Positions 3,936-20,988 of a DNA stretch of 64,000 bases are shown here, piece by piece. The notes under the pieces are model-generated. The model saw only the letters and a program-made list of their open reading frames with translations. It ran no database searches and was not told where the DNA came from. The stretch is from the NCBI RefSeq assembly GCF_054482595.1, contig NZ_CM137008.1. One strand, written 5' to 3'. The position numbers and the translations under genes are program-made. Position 1 is the stretch's first letter. Each line of letters opens with the position of its first letter.

Positions 3936-5603
3936 TTATTGCAAACGTTCTAATAAACGAGCCAGTTTTTTATTGCCGCCGGCGACTGGCGACCATTGGT
4001 AATGCACAACCGGTTTGCTGGCGCTTTGTAGCTCCAGCGCAAAACTGCGTAATCCGATGTTAATCACGGCGACGTTTTCCAGTAATGACGGTGTGTGTTG
4101 CTGTGCGGCAGGCGAGAGCGGATGAATTAACGCTGCCGCCAGCAAGGTGGCTTCCGGTAGCGAACTCACGACCGCAATCCCCGCATCTTCCAGCGTGGCG
4201 ATTTGCTGCGAGCGGCATTGCGGGTCACGTTCGGTACCTGTCACCGTGGCAATGGCGTACAGCGGTTGGCTGTCTGAACGCGCGGCACAGGCTTTTTGCC
4301 AGGCGCTCACCAGCGAGGCGGCAGGATCGGCGGTCGCGCCGAAGCCAATCACGACATCAAGTAGCAATACGCGCACTGACAGTTTAGCGCCGAGATCGGC
4401 AATTAACTGGTTGCGTAAGGTTGGGTCGATCATCGGATGGGGACGCCCGACGGTGTAGAAATCATCGCCAAGGTCAATAATCTGGTGACCATCGGCGTCG
4501 AGCATCATGCCGTGATGATGGGCATCATCGGCTTCCACGCCAAGGTGTCCGGCAAGTAATCCCGCCGCTTCGGCAGCCAGCGTACCGCCGGTATACAAAC
4601 CGCAAATAAATCCGCTGCTGACAGGTGCTATTGCGTTACGTCGCGCCGTGACGCGTGAAAGCAGGCAAGCCAGGCGTGCGGCCTCATCCAGCGAGGAGGC
4701 AAACCAGACATTCTCGTCGCGGGCCACCGCCGGGGTATAACCTAAAAACAGCGCCACCGTCGGTTTGCCGGTTGCTTTCATGGCATTAACAATTTTCAGA
4801 CGCACCGCTTCGGCAGGTGGTTTTGAAACAAATGCCAGCACTTCGCTTTTCTCGTCTGCACTGAGCATTTCCAGCGCCGTCAGCGCACTGATGCCGCCCA
4901 CTTCACGGCTGAGGTCGCGGCCGCCAAGGCCAATCGCGTGAGTAATTCCCTCCCCTGCCAGCGCAATCTGCGAGCACAGCTCCTGAATCCCGGTACCGGA
5001 AGCGCCAATGACGCCAATATTGCCTTCCGGCATCACGTTAGCAAAAGCCAGCGGCGTGGCGGCAATCATCGACGTACCGCAGTCCGGCCCCATCACCAGC
5101 AAGCCTTTTTCTCGCGCGCGGGTTTTAAGTTGGATTTCATCTTCCAGCGTGACGTTATCGGAGAACATCATCACGTTGAGGTTGCGATCCAGCGCCTGAT
5201 TCGCCAGCTCCGCCGCATACTCGCCAGCCACTGAAATCAGCGCCAGATTGGCATCGGGTAATTTCTGACAGGCACTGTCCCAGCGACGCACCTGCGTCAA
5301 GGACTGGCTGCTGCCTGCCCCCTGCGCCAGTTGTTTTAGCGCCTCTTCAAGCTGCTGCATAATCGCCTGCGCGATCCCCGCATCCGCCGCTTCGCTACGA
5401 ATTGCCACGCAAATATCGTTCGGCGTGGCGTTATTAAAATCGTCATGCCAGAAACCTGTGGTATCTAATAACGCTTTATTGGCGGGCGTACCCATCATTA
5501 CGGAAACATCATCAACATTTTCTGATTCGCTGAGTTTTCGTGAAATAATCATTAAACTGACCGAATCCTGAAAACACCCTTTTTTAATAAAGGCGTGGAT
5601 CAT
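3936..5603 (-). CDS. fdrA: FdrA, acyl-CoA synthetase (NDP-forming)-like protein
   Basis: 555-aa ORF, N-terminus MIHAFIKKGCFQDSVSLMIISRKL; synteny. Confidence 0.9.
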   Translation of the reverse strand: MIHAFIKKGCFQDSVSLMIISRKLSESENVDDVSVMMGTPANKALLDTTGFWHDDFNNATPNDICVAIRSEAADAGIAQAIMQQLEEALKQLAQGAGSSQSLTQVRRWDSACQKLPDANLALISVAGEYAAELANQALDRNLNVMMFSDNVTLEDEIQLKTRAREKGLLVMGPDCGTSMIAATPLAFANVMPEGNIGVIGASGTGIQELCSQIALAGEGITHAIGLGGRDLSREVGGISALTALEMLSADEKSEVLAFVSKPPAEAVRLKIVNAMKATGKPTVALFLGYTPAVARDENVWFASSLDEAARLACLLSRVTARRNAIAPVSSGFICGLYTGGTLAAEAAGLLAGHLGVEADDAHHHGMMLDADGHQIIDLGDDFYTVGRPHPMIDPTLRNQLIADLGAKLSVRVLLLDVVIGFGATADPAASLVSAWQKACAARSDSQPLYAIATVTGTERDPQCRSQQIATLEDAGIAVVSSLPEATLLAAALIHPLSPAAQQHTPSLLENVAVINIGLRSFALELQSASKPVVHYQWSPVAGGNKKLARLLERLQ

Positions 5604-5919
5604 AACAACTCCTTAAAAATTGCACCCATGGCAATTGCACGAGCAGTGTTAATGTGGCGATTACGGTATCGATGACAACGGGTAAATAAGGTGATGAATA
5701 TCACACAGGGATTATTAACAAAAGAATTCAAATAACCGCCATGCTATTACGTGTTATTTTTTAATAAGCGTGGTTGTTTTAAAAACCAGGTTAAAAGCGA
5801 GCGGATTATCAAATAAATTCTAACTATATTTTTTTGCCTGTCTGGATCACATAATCCAGATATTTTCCCTGTATGTTAATTGCAGTCATGCTTCACACCG
5901 TCGTTAAAAAGGAAGACAG

Positions 5920-6969
5920 ATGAAAATCAGTCGGGAAACACTCCACCAGCTAATTGAGAATAAACTCTGCCAGGCTGGGTTAAAACGTGAGCACGCTGCA
6001 ACCGTGGCTGAAGTATTGGTTTACGCCGATGCCAGAGGGATCCACTCTCATGGCGCGGTGCGCGTGGAATACTACGCGGAACGCATTTCAAAAGGCGGCA
6101 CCAACCGCGAACCGGAGTTTCGTCTTGAGGAAACCGGGCCGTGCTCGGCAATTTTACATGCCGACAATGCCGCCGGACAGGTCGCGGCGAAAATGGGTAT
6201 GGAACATGCCATCAAAACCGCCCAGCAAAATGGCGTTGCGGTGGTCGGTATCAGCCGGATGGGTCACAGCGGCGCAATCTCTTATTTTGTGCAGCAGGCA
6301 GCCCGCGCCGGATTAATTGGCATTTCGATGTGTCAGTCCGATCCAATGGTGGTGCCGTTTGGCGGCGCGGAAATTTACTACGGTACTAACCCACTGGCCT
6401 TTGCCGCGCCGGGAGAAGGCGACGAGATCCTTACCTTTGATATGGCGACTACCGTACAGGCATGGGGAAAAGTGCTCGACGCCCGCTCGCGTAATATGTC
6501 TATCCCGGATACCTGGGCGGTCGATAAAAACGGTGCACCAACAACCGATCCGTTCGCGGTACATGCTCTGCTCCCCGCAGCCGGGCCGAAAGGGTATGGC
6601 CTGATGATGATGATTGACGTCCTCTCAGGCGTCTTACTCGGCTTACCGTTCGGGCGACAGGTTAGTTCGATGTATGACGATTTACACGCCGGGCGTAATT
6701 TGGGGCAATTACATGTAGTTATTAACCCGAACTTTTTCTCCTCCAGCGAATTATTCCGTCAACATCTTAGCCAGACCATGCGCGAATTAAATGCCATTAC
6801 CCCCGCGCCCGGTTTTAATCAGGTTTATTATCCCGGACAGGATCAGGATATTAAACAACGCCAAGCCGCCGTCGAAGGCATCGAAATTGTTGATGATATT
6901 TACCAGTATTTAATTTCCGACGCGCTTTATAACACGTCATACGAAACGAAAAATCCCTTTGCGCAATAA
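5920..6969 (+). CDS. allD: ureidoglycolate dehydrogenase
   Basis: 349-aa ORF, malate/L-lactate dehydrogenase-family translation; first gene of allDCE. Confidence 0.9.
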   Translation: MKISRETLHQLIENKLCQAGLKREHAATVAEVLVYADARGIHSHGAVRVEYYAERISKGGTNREPEFRLEETGPCSAILHADNAAGQVAAKMGMEHAIKTAQQNGVAVVGISRMGHSGAISYFVQQAARAGLIGISMCQSDPMVVPFGGAEIYYGTNPLAFAAPGEGDEILTFDMATTVQAWGKVLDARSRNMSIPDTWAVDKNGAPTTDPFAVHALLPAAGPKGYGLMMMIDVLSGVLLGLPFGRQVSSMYDDLHAGRNLGQLHVVINPNFFSSSELFRQHLSQTMRELNAITPAPGFNQVYYPGQDQDIKQRQAAVEGIEIVDDIYQYLISDALYNTSYETKNPFAQ

Positions 6970-16585: not shown

Positions 16586-18367
16586 TTATTCATAGTGCAT
16601 GAAGCAGGTTTCAGTCGGTGCATCCGCTGCGTTATCGGCGATATCTTCAAATTCCATGACGTTATCCAGTTCGCTGCCCATCGAAATATTTGTCACACGC
16701 TCGAGAATAACTTCCACGACTACCGGTACCCGATATTGCGCCATTAAGGCTTTCGCCTGTTCAAAGGCCGGTGCAATATCTTCCGGTTTGAAGACGCGAA
16801 TAGCTTTACAACCTAAACCTTCCGCTACTTTTACGTGGTCGACGCCGTAACCGTTCACTTCGCTGGAGTTGATATTCTCGAAAGCGAGTTGCACGCAGTA
16901 GTCCATGTCAAAGGCGCGTTGTGACTGACGAATCAGACCGAGATAGGCGTTGTTAACCAGCACATGGATGTACGGAATGTTGAACTGCGCGCCAACGGCT
17001 AACTCTTCAATCAGGAACTGGAAGTCGAAGTCACCGGAAATCGCCACCACATTGCGTTTCGGATCAGCGGCACAAACCCCCAGCGCCGCCGGAATCGTCC
17101 AGCCTAACGGACCAGCCTGACCACAGTTGATCCAGTGGCGGTCTTTAAAGACATGCAGCATTTGTGCCGCAGCGATTTGTGACAGACCAATGGTGGTGAC
17201 ATAACAAACATCGCGACCAAAGGCTTTGTTCATCTCTTCATACACGCGCTGCGGTTTCACCGGCACGTTGTCGAAGTGGGTTTTGCGCAGCAAAGTGCGT
17301 TTGCGCTGCTGGCAGTCGGCGACCCATTCTTTACGACACGGCAGACGACCCGCTTTTTGCATCTCCTGCGCCACTTCAACCAGCAGTGTCAGCGCCGCTT
17401 TAGCATCAGAGACAATGCCGAGATCCGGACACAGCACGCGGCCAATTTGCGTCGGCTCAATATCGATATGAACGATTTTGCGCCCTTCGGTGTATTTCTC
17501 TACCGAACCGGTATGACGGTTAGCAAAACGGTTACCGATACCAAACACCATGTCGGACGCCAGCAGCGTTGCGTTACCGTAACGATGCGCGGTTTGCAGA
17601 CCGACCATCCCGGCCATCAGTTCATGATCGTCCGGGATACAGCCCCAGCCCATCAGCGTTGGGATCACCGGAACGCTGGTCAGTTCAGCAAACTGTTGTA
17701 ACAGTGCAGCTGCGTCAGCATTGATTACCCCGCCCCCGGCAACAATCACCGGACGTTCGGCCTGGATTAACATTTCTACAGCTTTTTCGATCTGCATACG
17801 GCTGGCAGCAGGTTTGTAGACCGGCAGCGGTTCGTACATGTCAGGATCAAACTCGATTTCCGCAACCTGAACGTCGAACGGTAAATCCACCAGTACCGGA
17901 CCCGGACGACCAGAACGCATCAGGTGAAATGCCTGTTGCAGCACGCGAGGCACCAGCGCCGCTTCACGAACTGTAACCGCCATTTTGCTGACCGGTTTAG
18001 CAATTGCTTCAATATCTACGGCCTGAAAATCTTCTTTATGCAGACGGGCGCGCGGAGCCTGGCCGGTAATGCACAGAATAGGAATGGAATCAGCAGAAGC
18101 AGAATAGAGCGCGGTGATCATGTCCGTGCCCGCAGGACCGGAAGTCCCCAGACATACGCCGATATTCCCTGCCGTTGCGCGGGTATAACCTTCCGCCATG
18201 TGCGAAGCACCTTCCACATGACGCGCCAGAATGTGACGAATACCGCCGTGCTTACGCATCGCTGAGTAGAACGGATTGATTGCAGCTCCCGGAACACCGA
18301 AGGCGGTGGTGATACCTTCTTTCTCCAGCACATACATTGCCGCGTCAACGGCTCTCATTTTTGCCAT
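16586..18367 (-). CDS. gcl: glyoxylate carboligase (ThDP-dependent)
   Basis: ORF 16586-18457; start set at ATG 18367 ([10 protein letters not shown], 593 aa) with AGGTAGGAAT RBS upstream. Confidence 0.92.
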
Positions 18368-18387
18368 TTTATTCCTACCTCTATTTA

Positions 18388-18404
18388 TTGGAAAATTTTT
18401 CCAA
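18388..18404. promoter_or_regulatory. AllR operator in gcl promoter
   Basis: Palindrome TTGGAAAATTTTTCCAA about 20 bp upstream of gcl start; near-identical to the box at 19938. Confidence 0.7.
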
Positions 18405-18419
18405 CTTTCAAATTTTGTC

Positions 18420-18444
18420 AAAAAAACCCGCTCCGCAGAGCGGG
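18420..18444 (-). terminator. rho-independent terminator after allR
   Basis: Minus-strand hairpin cccgctctgcggagcggg followed by a U7 run. Confidence 0.6.
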
Positions 18445-18456
18445 ATGCGACAGACA

Positions 18457-19272
18457 TTATGGATGTGCTTTCAGTCCCAACGCCGTGCTGATATCGCGGG
18501 CGGTGTCTCTGACCAGCTCACCCTGACTGACAAAACGGTCTTCTGTCAGTCTTGATGAAGGCCCGGAGATGGAGATAGCGGCAACAACGCTACCTACATC
18601 ATCGTAAATTGCTGAAGCTATGCAATTCAGACCTACAACATGCTCTTCTTTATCTACGGTATAGCCCAGTTCACGCGCTTGTTCCAGGTCCTTCAGCAAG
18701 GTGGGCATATCCACAAACGTAGTTGGCGTAAACTGCTGCAAACCGGTTTGCAGAATGATGCTCATCAACTCCTCTTCCGCCAGCGGATAAAGCAGCGCTT
18801 TGCCCGCACCGGAAGCATGCAGTGGCAGACGACTGCCCAGTGGCGCACACATCCTGACCATCGATTTACACTCTAACTGACCAATTAATACCGCTTCATT
18901 GCCGTTACGGATCGCGACATTGACCGTTTCGCCGGAAAGTAACATCAGGCGGCGCATAAACGGCCCGGCGACGGAGAGGACATCGCGGTTATGGATGTAC
19001 GCTGCACCGACGTTAAAGACACCTAATCCTATATGCCACCAGCCTAACTGACTGTCCTGATAGACAAAATCCGCTGCCTGTAAAACCTTCAGCAAGCGAA
19101 AGGTCGTGGAGAGCGGCAAATCCAGATTGAGAGAAATATCGCTAACCGACGAACTTCCCCCACTTTTTTCCAGATATTGCAGAATCGCAATTCCCCGCTC
19201 TAATGCCTGTGCGCCCTTCTGTGCCACAGGCTCCGCCTGTCCTGGCCTGCCGCGCCGTCTAACTTCCGTCAT
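18457..19272 (-). CDS. allR: IclR-family repressor of the allantoin regulon
   Basis: 271-aa ORF; IclR-type HTH plus effector domain; synteny. Confidence 0.9.
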
Positions 19273-19349
19273 ACCTACGTTAACTCCGACCTACAAGTGA
19301 GCATAAACAATGAACAATTAGTTTATCTTATGCAAGTCGGTTGCAGGCG

Positions 19350-19832
19350 TCACGCAAAACAGAGTTCCTGTTCAGGAATACTTTCAACATCACAGTTGTC
19401 ACTGCCGCCGCGATCGATGGTCAGAAAATCGGTGACGCGCTGCCAGGCGAAAAGTGGGTGATGCCAGACGTTACGATGGTAATTCACTCCCTGTTCGCCG
19501 TTGGTAATAAACGCCCGCAGGGTTGACAGGTCTGGTTTGTCGTCACCTAACGCCACGACCACCACAAACACCTCACCTTTCATCGGGATAAAGGCCTGAG
19601 TACCCAGCGGATGACGTTCGAGTTCGTGAATGGTCAGCGGCAGATTCGCCGGTTGCGCGCGGTTAATGCTGATAAGCGTACGGTCTTGCTCAAGAATCTC
19701 AACCAGCGCCAAATCGTGGTAACGCTCCACCAGGCCATTGTTAATATGGAAAAAATCCCGTTGCTGCGTTTCGATTACGTCGCCATAAGCACTAAAGGCT
19801 TCCTGACTTAACGGTAATACCTGAAGTTTCAT
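19350..19832 (-). CDS. allA: ureidoglycolate lyase
   Basis: 160-aa ORF; synteny, divergent from allS. Confidence 0.9.
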
Positions 19833-19937
19833 CTTTTTGTCCTTGTAACATAATTCCGTTCAACCAGCGCCGACCGGTCAGCTTGGTTTCAATAACAGGC
19901 AATCTAAAACCTTAAGAGAACAACATCAATACAAAAG

Positions 19938-19954
19938 TTGGAATATTTTTCCAA
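19938..19954. promoter_or_regulatory. AllR operator in the allA/allS divergent intergenic region
   Basis: Palindrome TTGGAATATTTTTCCAA; one mismatch from the gcl box. Confidence 0.7.
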
Positions 19955-20061
19955 AACTAGATTTAGTCCACAAATTGAACAGGGTTATCATGTAAAAATA
20001 CTGATAAATCAGAGGATAAGAAAATCACGCAACTTGCGGATTTAAAAGGGGATACCTGAAG

Positions 20062-20988
20062 ATGTTCGATCCAGAAACCTTGCGGACTTTCATTGCGGTT
20101 GCTGAAACAGGAAGTTTTTCAAAAGCGGCAGAACGATTATGTAAAACCACGGCGACGATCAGTTATCGCATTAAACTTCTGGAAGAGAATACCGGAGTAG
20201 CGCTGTTTTTCCGTACGACTCGCAGCGTGACGTTGACAGCGGCTGGCGAGCATCTACTTTCCCAGGCCAGAGACTGGCTGAGCTGGCTGGAAAGTATGCC
20301 AAGCGAGCTGCAACAGGTGAATGATGGCGTGGAACGCCAGGTGAATATTGTCATCAACAACCTGCTCTACACCCCCCAGGCCGTCGCCCAGTTGCTGGCG
20401 TGGCTGAATGAACGTTACCCCTTTACCCAGTTTCACATCTCCCGACAAATCTATATGGGCGTCTGGGACTCGCTATTGTACGAAGGTTTTGCGCTGGCTA
20501 TCGGCGTCACGGGAACTGAGGCGCTGGCAAATACCTTTAGTCTTGATCCCTTAGGATCGGTGCAATGGCGATTTGTCATGGCGGCGGATCATCCGCTGGC
20601 GAACGTTGAAGAGCCGCTAACAGAAGCGCAGTTGCGGCGCTTTCCGGCGGTCAATATTGAAGACAGCGCCCGCACCTTAACCAAACGCGTCGCCTGGCGA
20701 TTGCCAGGGCAAAAAGAGATTATTGTTCCCGATATGGAAACGAAAATCGCCGCCCATCTGGCGGGCGTTGGCATTGGTTTTTTGCCAAAATCACTTTGCC
20801 AGTCAATGATCGATAATCAACAACTGGTCAGCCGGGTAATCCCAACGATGCGCCCTCCTTCGCCATTGAGTCTGGCATGGCGCAAATTTGGCAGCGGCAA
20901 AGCGGTAGAAGATATTGTGACCTTGTTTACCCAGCGCAGGCCGGAAATCAGCGGATTTTTAGAAATTTTCGGCAACCCACGCAGTTAA
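20062..20988 (+). CDS. allS: LysR-type activator of allDCE
   Basis: 308-aa ORF with N-terminal LysR HTH. Confidence 0.9.

Follow-up and report, generated by a model that had tools for sequence, protein, structure and literature searches.

Two near-identical palindromes in the Escherichia coli allantoin cluster correspond to the described AllR operators

Published AllR control regions

In Escherichia coli, the two control regions at which the repressor AllR acts reportedly share a highly conserved inverted repeat, which the abstract of the original 2002 description is said to identify by mutagenesis as the AllR-binding site and to call similar to the consensus of IclR. AllR belongs to the IclR family of repressors and combines a winged helix-turn-helix (HTH) domain at its N terminus with an effector domain at its C terminus (PMC12535856; PMC11323563); its DNA binding has been described for the control region between allS and allA and for the promoter of gcl (PMC12535856; PMC11323563; PMC13300388). 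Glyoxylate is its inducer and allantoin its co-repressor (PMC12535856); rising glyoxylate lowers AllR-DNA binding (PMC11323563), and abolition of this binding by glyoxylate is credited to Rintoul 2002 and Walker 2006, as cited in PMC12535856, PMC11323563, and PMC13300388. AllR represses allS, whose product activates allD and allF (fdrA); in the gap between the latter two genes no AllR site is predicted, AllS binds there, and expression of an allF'-'lacZ fusion is unchanged by deletion of allR (PMC12535856). In chromatin immunoprecipitation sequencing (ChIP-seq), AllR is described as highly specific, one or a few strong sites standing out far above the background (PMC12059191), and genomic SELEX has reported further AllR-bound regions, e.g., artP, with no site or regulatory effect shown there (PMC6640053).

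Several published descriptions of the AllR site itself are available for comparison. A 37-nt "AllR recognition site," AAATCTAGTTTTGGAAAAATATTCCAACTTTTGTATT, is ascribed by PMC13300388 to Rintoul et al. 2002, and the same paper describes a 2026 AllR-repressible Pgcl::lux reporter built with the primers PgclinsF and PgclinsR. The AllR motif given by Suvorova and Gelfand 2021 (PMC8222616), drawn from Rintoul 2002 and comparative analysis, is KTTGGAAWAWTWTTCCAAC, and these authors place AllR among the A/T-rich palindromic motifs. The sites, the regulator, its effectors, and the regulatory logic are thus already known, having been published in 2002-2008 and taken up in motif compilations and engineered reporters.

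The two palindromes and their match to published AllR sites

The window, i.e., the whole 64-kb stretch of DNA analyzed here, carries the E. coli allantoin cluster in inverted orientation, the minus strand encoding gcl, allR, and allA and the plus strand allS (Table 1). The first-pass annotation had proposed, from the raw sequence, that two near-identical 17-bp palindromes in this cluster, one 5' of gcl and one between allA and allS, mark AllR-controlled promoters, and the gene context it assumed agrees with the coordinates and with the RefSeq and NCBIfam identities. AllR scored 617.9 bits against the NCBIfam NF007548 AllR equivalog model, with a cutoff of 406, and it matched PDB 1TF1, the solved structure of its effector domain, with an E value of 6e-110. 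The 2.8-kb gcl-allR-allA-allS stretch around the palindromes is 100% identical to that of E. coli strain XH990 and others, and it was found in 5404 of 5426 complete E. coli genomes, the remaining 22 being without it.

Three side observations concern this stretch. Two of its 5420 matching places lie on plasmids. In E. coli strain 08_3418 (NZ_CP074911.1), it is split in two places, the best of which covers 55% (gcl and allR), a pattern pointing to an insertion or a rearrangement close to allR/allA in that strain. Lastly, the longest open reading frame of gcl (16586-18457, minus strand) would begin at an upstream ATG at 18457, reading through the operator and the terminator to give 623 amino acids; this version was rejected as a longest-ORF artefact in favor of the annotated and conserved start, the ATG at 18367, which gives 593 amino acids.

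Table 1. Positions in the window of the genes, control regions, and sites discussed in the text
Feature	Position	Strand	Remarks
fdrA (allF)	3936-5603	-	identity confirmed
fdrA(allF)/allD divergent control region	5604-5919	.	without AllR box; under the control of AllS (and ArcA)
allD	5920-6969	+	identity confirmed
gcl, glyoxylate carboligase	16586-18367	-	first gene of the operon repressed via box 1; RefSeq annotation
Pgcl reporter fragment, 82 bp	18375-18456	-	PgclinsF/PgclinsR mapped on the window; box 1 in downstream third
Box 1, AllR operator of the gcl promoter; TTGGAAAATTTTTCCAA	18388-18404	.	20 nt 5' of gcl ATG
allR intrinsic terminator, CCCGCTCtgcgGAGCGGG plus T run	18420-18444	-	directly 5' of the gcl promoter region
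allR, IclR-family repressor binding both boxes	18457-19272	-	NCBIfam NF007548 equivalog; RefSeq
allA, ureidoglycolate lyase	19350-19832	-	repressed via box 2; RefSeq and NCBIfam
Putative allA core promoter	19901-19929	-	-35 TTGATG (19929-19924), 17-nt spacer, -10 TAGATT (19906-19901)
37-nt "AllR recognition site" AAATCTAGTTTTGGAAAAATATTCCAACTTTTGTATT	19928-19964	-	exact match; box 2 at centre
Box 2, AllR operator common to the divergent allS/allA promoters; TTGGAATATTTTTCCAA	19938-19954	.	
allS, LysR-type activator of allD and allF	20062-20988	+	repressed via box 2; RefSeq and NCBIfam

Both palindromes were located where the first-pass annotation had put them, and they differ by a single base, at base 7 (A versus T). 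Box 1 forms a perfect palindrome (8+1+8), in which 16 of 17 positions are self-complementary and the unavoidable centre base is the exception; box 2 is self-complementary at 14/17, its one arm mismatch falling at the base where the two boxes differ. Each has the form of an IclR-family palindrome, being A/T-rich, about 15-19 bp long, and composed of one half-site per monomer. Box 2 stands almost exactly at the centre of the 229-bp allS-allA gap, 105 nt from the ATG of allA and 107 nt from that of allS.

To judge how often such boxes arise, we searched the window and shuffled versions of it. Without mismatches, the pattern TTGGAANNNNNTTCCAA occurred exactly twice in the 64 kb of the window and in none of 100 dinucleotide shuffles; when TTGGAAN5TTCCAA was searched with up to 2 mismatches, boxes 1 and 2 were still the only matches, in keeping with the claim that the cluster holds no further copies. 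With first-order Markov statistics taken from the window, the relaxed pattern is expected 0.0054 times per 64 kb and 0.42 times per 5 Mb; given one copy, another would fall within 1.6 kb of it with a probability of about 3e-4. At 3 mismatches, the window holds 23 matches to the pattern, the shuffle mean being 27.9, and there is therefore no excess of degenerate copies. Two of these matches near the operators (18361-18377 and 19843-19859) were rejected as sites, the count being at chance level. Neither half-site, TTGGAA or TTCCAA, occurs in the 316-bp fdrA/allD gap, where the best 17-mer has 4 mismatches, and the half-site is absent from the 77-bp allA/allR gap as well; the reading of the fdrA/allD gap as boxless thus stands, as does the published prediction for it.

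The match to the described sites is close. The 37-nt recognition site is found in the window without a mismatch (Table 1), and both 17-bp cores fit TTGGAAWAWTWTTCCAA exactly and are contained in the published motif KTTGGAAWAWTWTTCCAAC, the flanking G/C of which is present on one side only at each box. Because the 82-bp Pgcl fragment is AllR-repressed in the reporter, it must hold both the promoter and the operator. Compared with the AllR operators of E. coli K-12 (Rintoul et al. 2002, J Mol Biol 324:599), the boxes are identical and come from the same species and the same control regions; nothing of substance differs, the window representing a non-K-12 strain background. The first-pass statement that AllR represses "exactly these two promoters" held for both regions, which serve three promoters (gcl, allA, and allS), and the word "exactly" is too strong genome-wide because of the additional regions, such as artP, bound in genomic SELEX (PMC6640053).

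Altogether, the box sequences, their statistics, the gene identities, the identity with published sites, and conservation across genera (see below) support, with a probability of about 0.97, that the two boxes are the experimentally defined AllR operators and that the encoded AllR binds both; none of the results spoke against this. The binding itself and the effector responses are taken from the literature, and the place proposed below for the operators relative to -35, -10, and +1 is our reading of the sequence.

Conservation across genera and alternative readings

A search for TTGGAAWAWTWTTCCAA in 298 Gb of sequence, in which each of 100,044 species was represented by one genome, gave at least 120 loci. 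Among the matches listed, Enterobacterales contributed 5 loci, from Citrobacter werkmanii, Citrobacter sp. FP75, Citrobacter sp. R56, Superficieibacter electus, and a Providencia MAG, and by tblastn all of them are allS-allA-allR(-gcl) clusters. In each of the five, one box lies between allS and allA and another immediately 5' of gcl, where the locus extends that far; the gcl box of Superficieibacter was found by the relaxed pattern only, because it has a G in the spacer. The distance from box to box is 1548-1647 bp in six species and 1550 bp in the window. Even in Providencia, in which AllR and AllS are 65% and 52% identical to the window proteins, respectively, both boxes have perfect arms. 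When both gaps were aligned among the six species, 15 of the 17 box positions were invariant at each gap, compared to 31 of 96 positions (32%) outside the box 5' of gcl and 56 of 231 (24%) outside the box in the allS-allA gap, and the substitutions within the boxes lie at the palindrome centre.

The first-pass annotation had named many additional copies at unrelated loci as the outcome that would speak against its reading. Among the matches listed, the complete 4.65-Mb chromosome of Citrobacter sp. R56, used as a proxy for the genome-wide count in E. coli, had the all-cluster locus only, and among these matches no such accumulation of copies was seen. The other 115 loci among the matches listed are single matches in unrelated genomes, mostly A/T-rich, with a median GC content of 38%; no homologues of AllR, Gcl, AllA, or AllS were detected at these loci by tblastn at E ≤ 1e-3, and their number is consistent with the at least 279 chance matches expected in 298 Gb.

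We considered whether the boxes might be bound mainly by IclR, the repressor of the glyoxylate shunt, rather than by AllR. IclR is a glyoxylate-responsive paralogue from the same family, AllR scores 247 bits on the IclR model, and the IclR boxes at aceBAK/iclR, with the consensus TGGAAATNATTTCCA, share the architecture of the AllR boxes, i.e., A/T-rich palindromes with TGGAA/TTCCA arms. In a manual comparison, the box core matched 12 of the 14 specified positions of this consensus (PMC8222616) at box 1 and 11 of 14 at box 2. Nevertheless, the consensus is not fitted by either box; both carry other bases at the innermost positions of the arms, and the outer T/A are different as well. Furthermore, five other species have the boxes together with allR, and in published work the factor that binds and represses in vivo at these promoters is AllR (PMC12535856; PMC13300388; PMC11323563). 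The regulons also differ, that of IclR being the glyoxylate shunt and that of AllR allantoin/glyoxylate catabolism. Primary binding by IclR is therefore very improbable.

Still less probable, to the point of being hardly credible, is that the palindromes act as nucleic-acid hairpins, whether as a leader RNA element or as a cruciform, instead of as protein operators. Folding did yield short stems of -6.5, -5.4, and -4.4 kcal/mol; these stems are nonetheless A/T-rich and of low stability; their z-scores range only between -1.0 and -2.1, and among 200 shuffles 8 to 33 folded equally well. The cross-species substitutions are central and show no pairing pattern, and the alignment places the allS-allA box probably 5' of both transcription starts, so that it would not be transcribed. 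Chance similarity of A/T-rich promoter regions, or generic promoter elements, would suit the low GC content of both gaps (36-38%) and the likeness of the left half of the gcl box, TGGAAAAAT, to an extended -10 element, and can be practically discounted given the empty shuffles, the 0.005 matches expected per window, and the conservation of both box positions in six species from three or more genera.

Promoter context and a proposed mode of repression

With the boxes taken as AllR operators, their surroundings were compared among the same species; the literature yielded no usable transcription-start or footprint coordinates for these promoters. The allR terminator is strong, with a hairpin (18444-18427) followed by a T run. 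In all six species, the T run is followed by the box in about 15-20 nt and then by the ATG in 14-20 nt, with the Shine-Dalgarno (SD) sequence between. The position of the terminator thus squeezes the gcl promoter and operator into roughly 45 bp, and with this spacing of terminator, box, SD sequence, and ATG, any gcl promoter would have to overlap box 1. One candidate consists of a -35 element TTGACA (18421-18416), a 17-nt spacer, and a poor -10 element AAATTT (18398-18393) within the box; alternatively, TGGAAAAAT of box 1 itself might serve as an extended -10. The sole promoter returned by a consensus scan, TTTCCA-17-TAAAAT (18394 to 18366), was rejected, as it cannot drive gcl with its -10 overlapping the gcl ATG. 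As a separate observation, a hairpin and T run follow allR at the same place in six species, and the stem in Providencia is completely different (AACCGTTT...AAACGGTT); the structure of this terminator is therefore conserved without its sequence.

In the allS-allA gap, the most conserved noncoding blocks besides the box are CTTTTGTnTTGATGTT (19924-19937), which abuts the box, and GGTTTTAGATTGC (19895-19910), both given on the minus strand. We infer that these blocks are the -35 and -10 regions of allA, respectively. In the putative allA -10 hexamer, which reads TATTAT in Providencia, the T, the A, and the final T are invariant in six species. On the other side of the gap, 5' of allS (19991-20009, plus strand), lie two tandem -10-like elements about 10 nt apart, TGtAAAAAT and TGATAAAT. 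Both are kept in Citrobacter and Superficieibacter, and the corresponding elements of Providencia are TATAAT and TAATAT; the conserved TGtAAAAAT (19991-19999) is the best candidate for the allS -10. With these assignments, box 2 would lie at about -60 to -44 (near -52) relative to allA and near -60 relative to allS. Since this places the box upstream of both putative -35 elements, repression here would not be a simple occlusion of -10 and -35.

These arrangements suggest how AllR may act. The N-terminal winged helix-turn-helix domains would sit on the palindrome, each monomer taking one half-site (TTGGAA). At gcl, the operator would fill much of the approximately 45-bp interval between the terminator and the ribosome-binding site (RBS) and overlap the core promoter or start, such that bound AllR would occlude RNA polymerase whichever of the promoter candidates holds. 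At allS-allA, one central operator between back-to-back promoters would repress both. Glyoxylate frees AllR from DNA, and allantoin strengthens repression (PMC12535856; PMC11323563). Because allS is itself AllR-repressed, the allD and allF (fdrA) operons would come under indirect AllR control; the fdrA/allD gap would lack an AllR box because its control runs through AllS, and the unchanged allF'-'lacZ expression upon allR deletion is consistent with this indirect route.

The IclR family also provides a comparison for the number of palindromes per operator. Its members bind as dimers or tetramers, many with tandem palindromes 18-22 nt apart, and a tandem second palindrome is found in more than half of the IclR orthologous groups and is not obligatory (PMC8222616). 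Unlike the TtgV-type tandem operators, with their 18-22 nt centre-to-centre spacing (PMC8222616), the AllR operators are each a single palindrome: within 60 nt of the operators in six species, we detected no tandem palindrome at 18-22 nt or at a conserved offset and no conserved isolated half-sites. The best conserved offset for a second palindrome, +27 at gcl, corresponds to TTGCCATTTTATTCCTA (18361-18377), a 3-mismatch box match 27 nt from the gcl operator that overlies the SD sequence and ATG of gcl; among the five Enterobacteriaceae the number of mismatches is 3-5, and in Providencia it rises to 9. Its likeness to the box is most simply put down to SD and coding conservation, such matches being at chance level window-wide.

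AllR is reportedly a dimer of dimers, a form that work from 2006 is said to have found necessary for activity, and in this it would resemble tetrameric IclR-family regulators such as TtgV. In view of this need and of the single palindrome in each control region, one AllR tetramer might bridge the gcl and allS-allA operators, 1550 bp apart, in a loop around allA/allR that would couple the three promoters. We regard this as a speculative and unlikely arrangement, and the conserved operator spacing of 1548-1647 bp is trivially explained by conserved gene lengths.

As a discovery, the operator pair has little significance, as it rediscovers textbook regulation; its value is as validation, in that a reading of raw sequence recovered a verified operator pair together with the boxless fdrA/allD gap. 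The footprint seen across genera provides modest added support for the published AllR motif, and the comparison of clusters shows a layout of two operators, each a single palindrome, that is ancestral at least to Enterobacteriaceae and Providencia.
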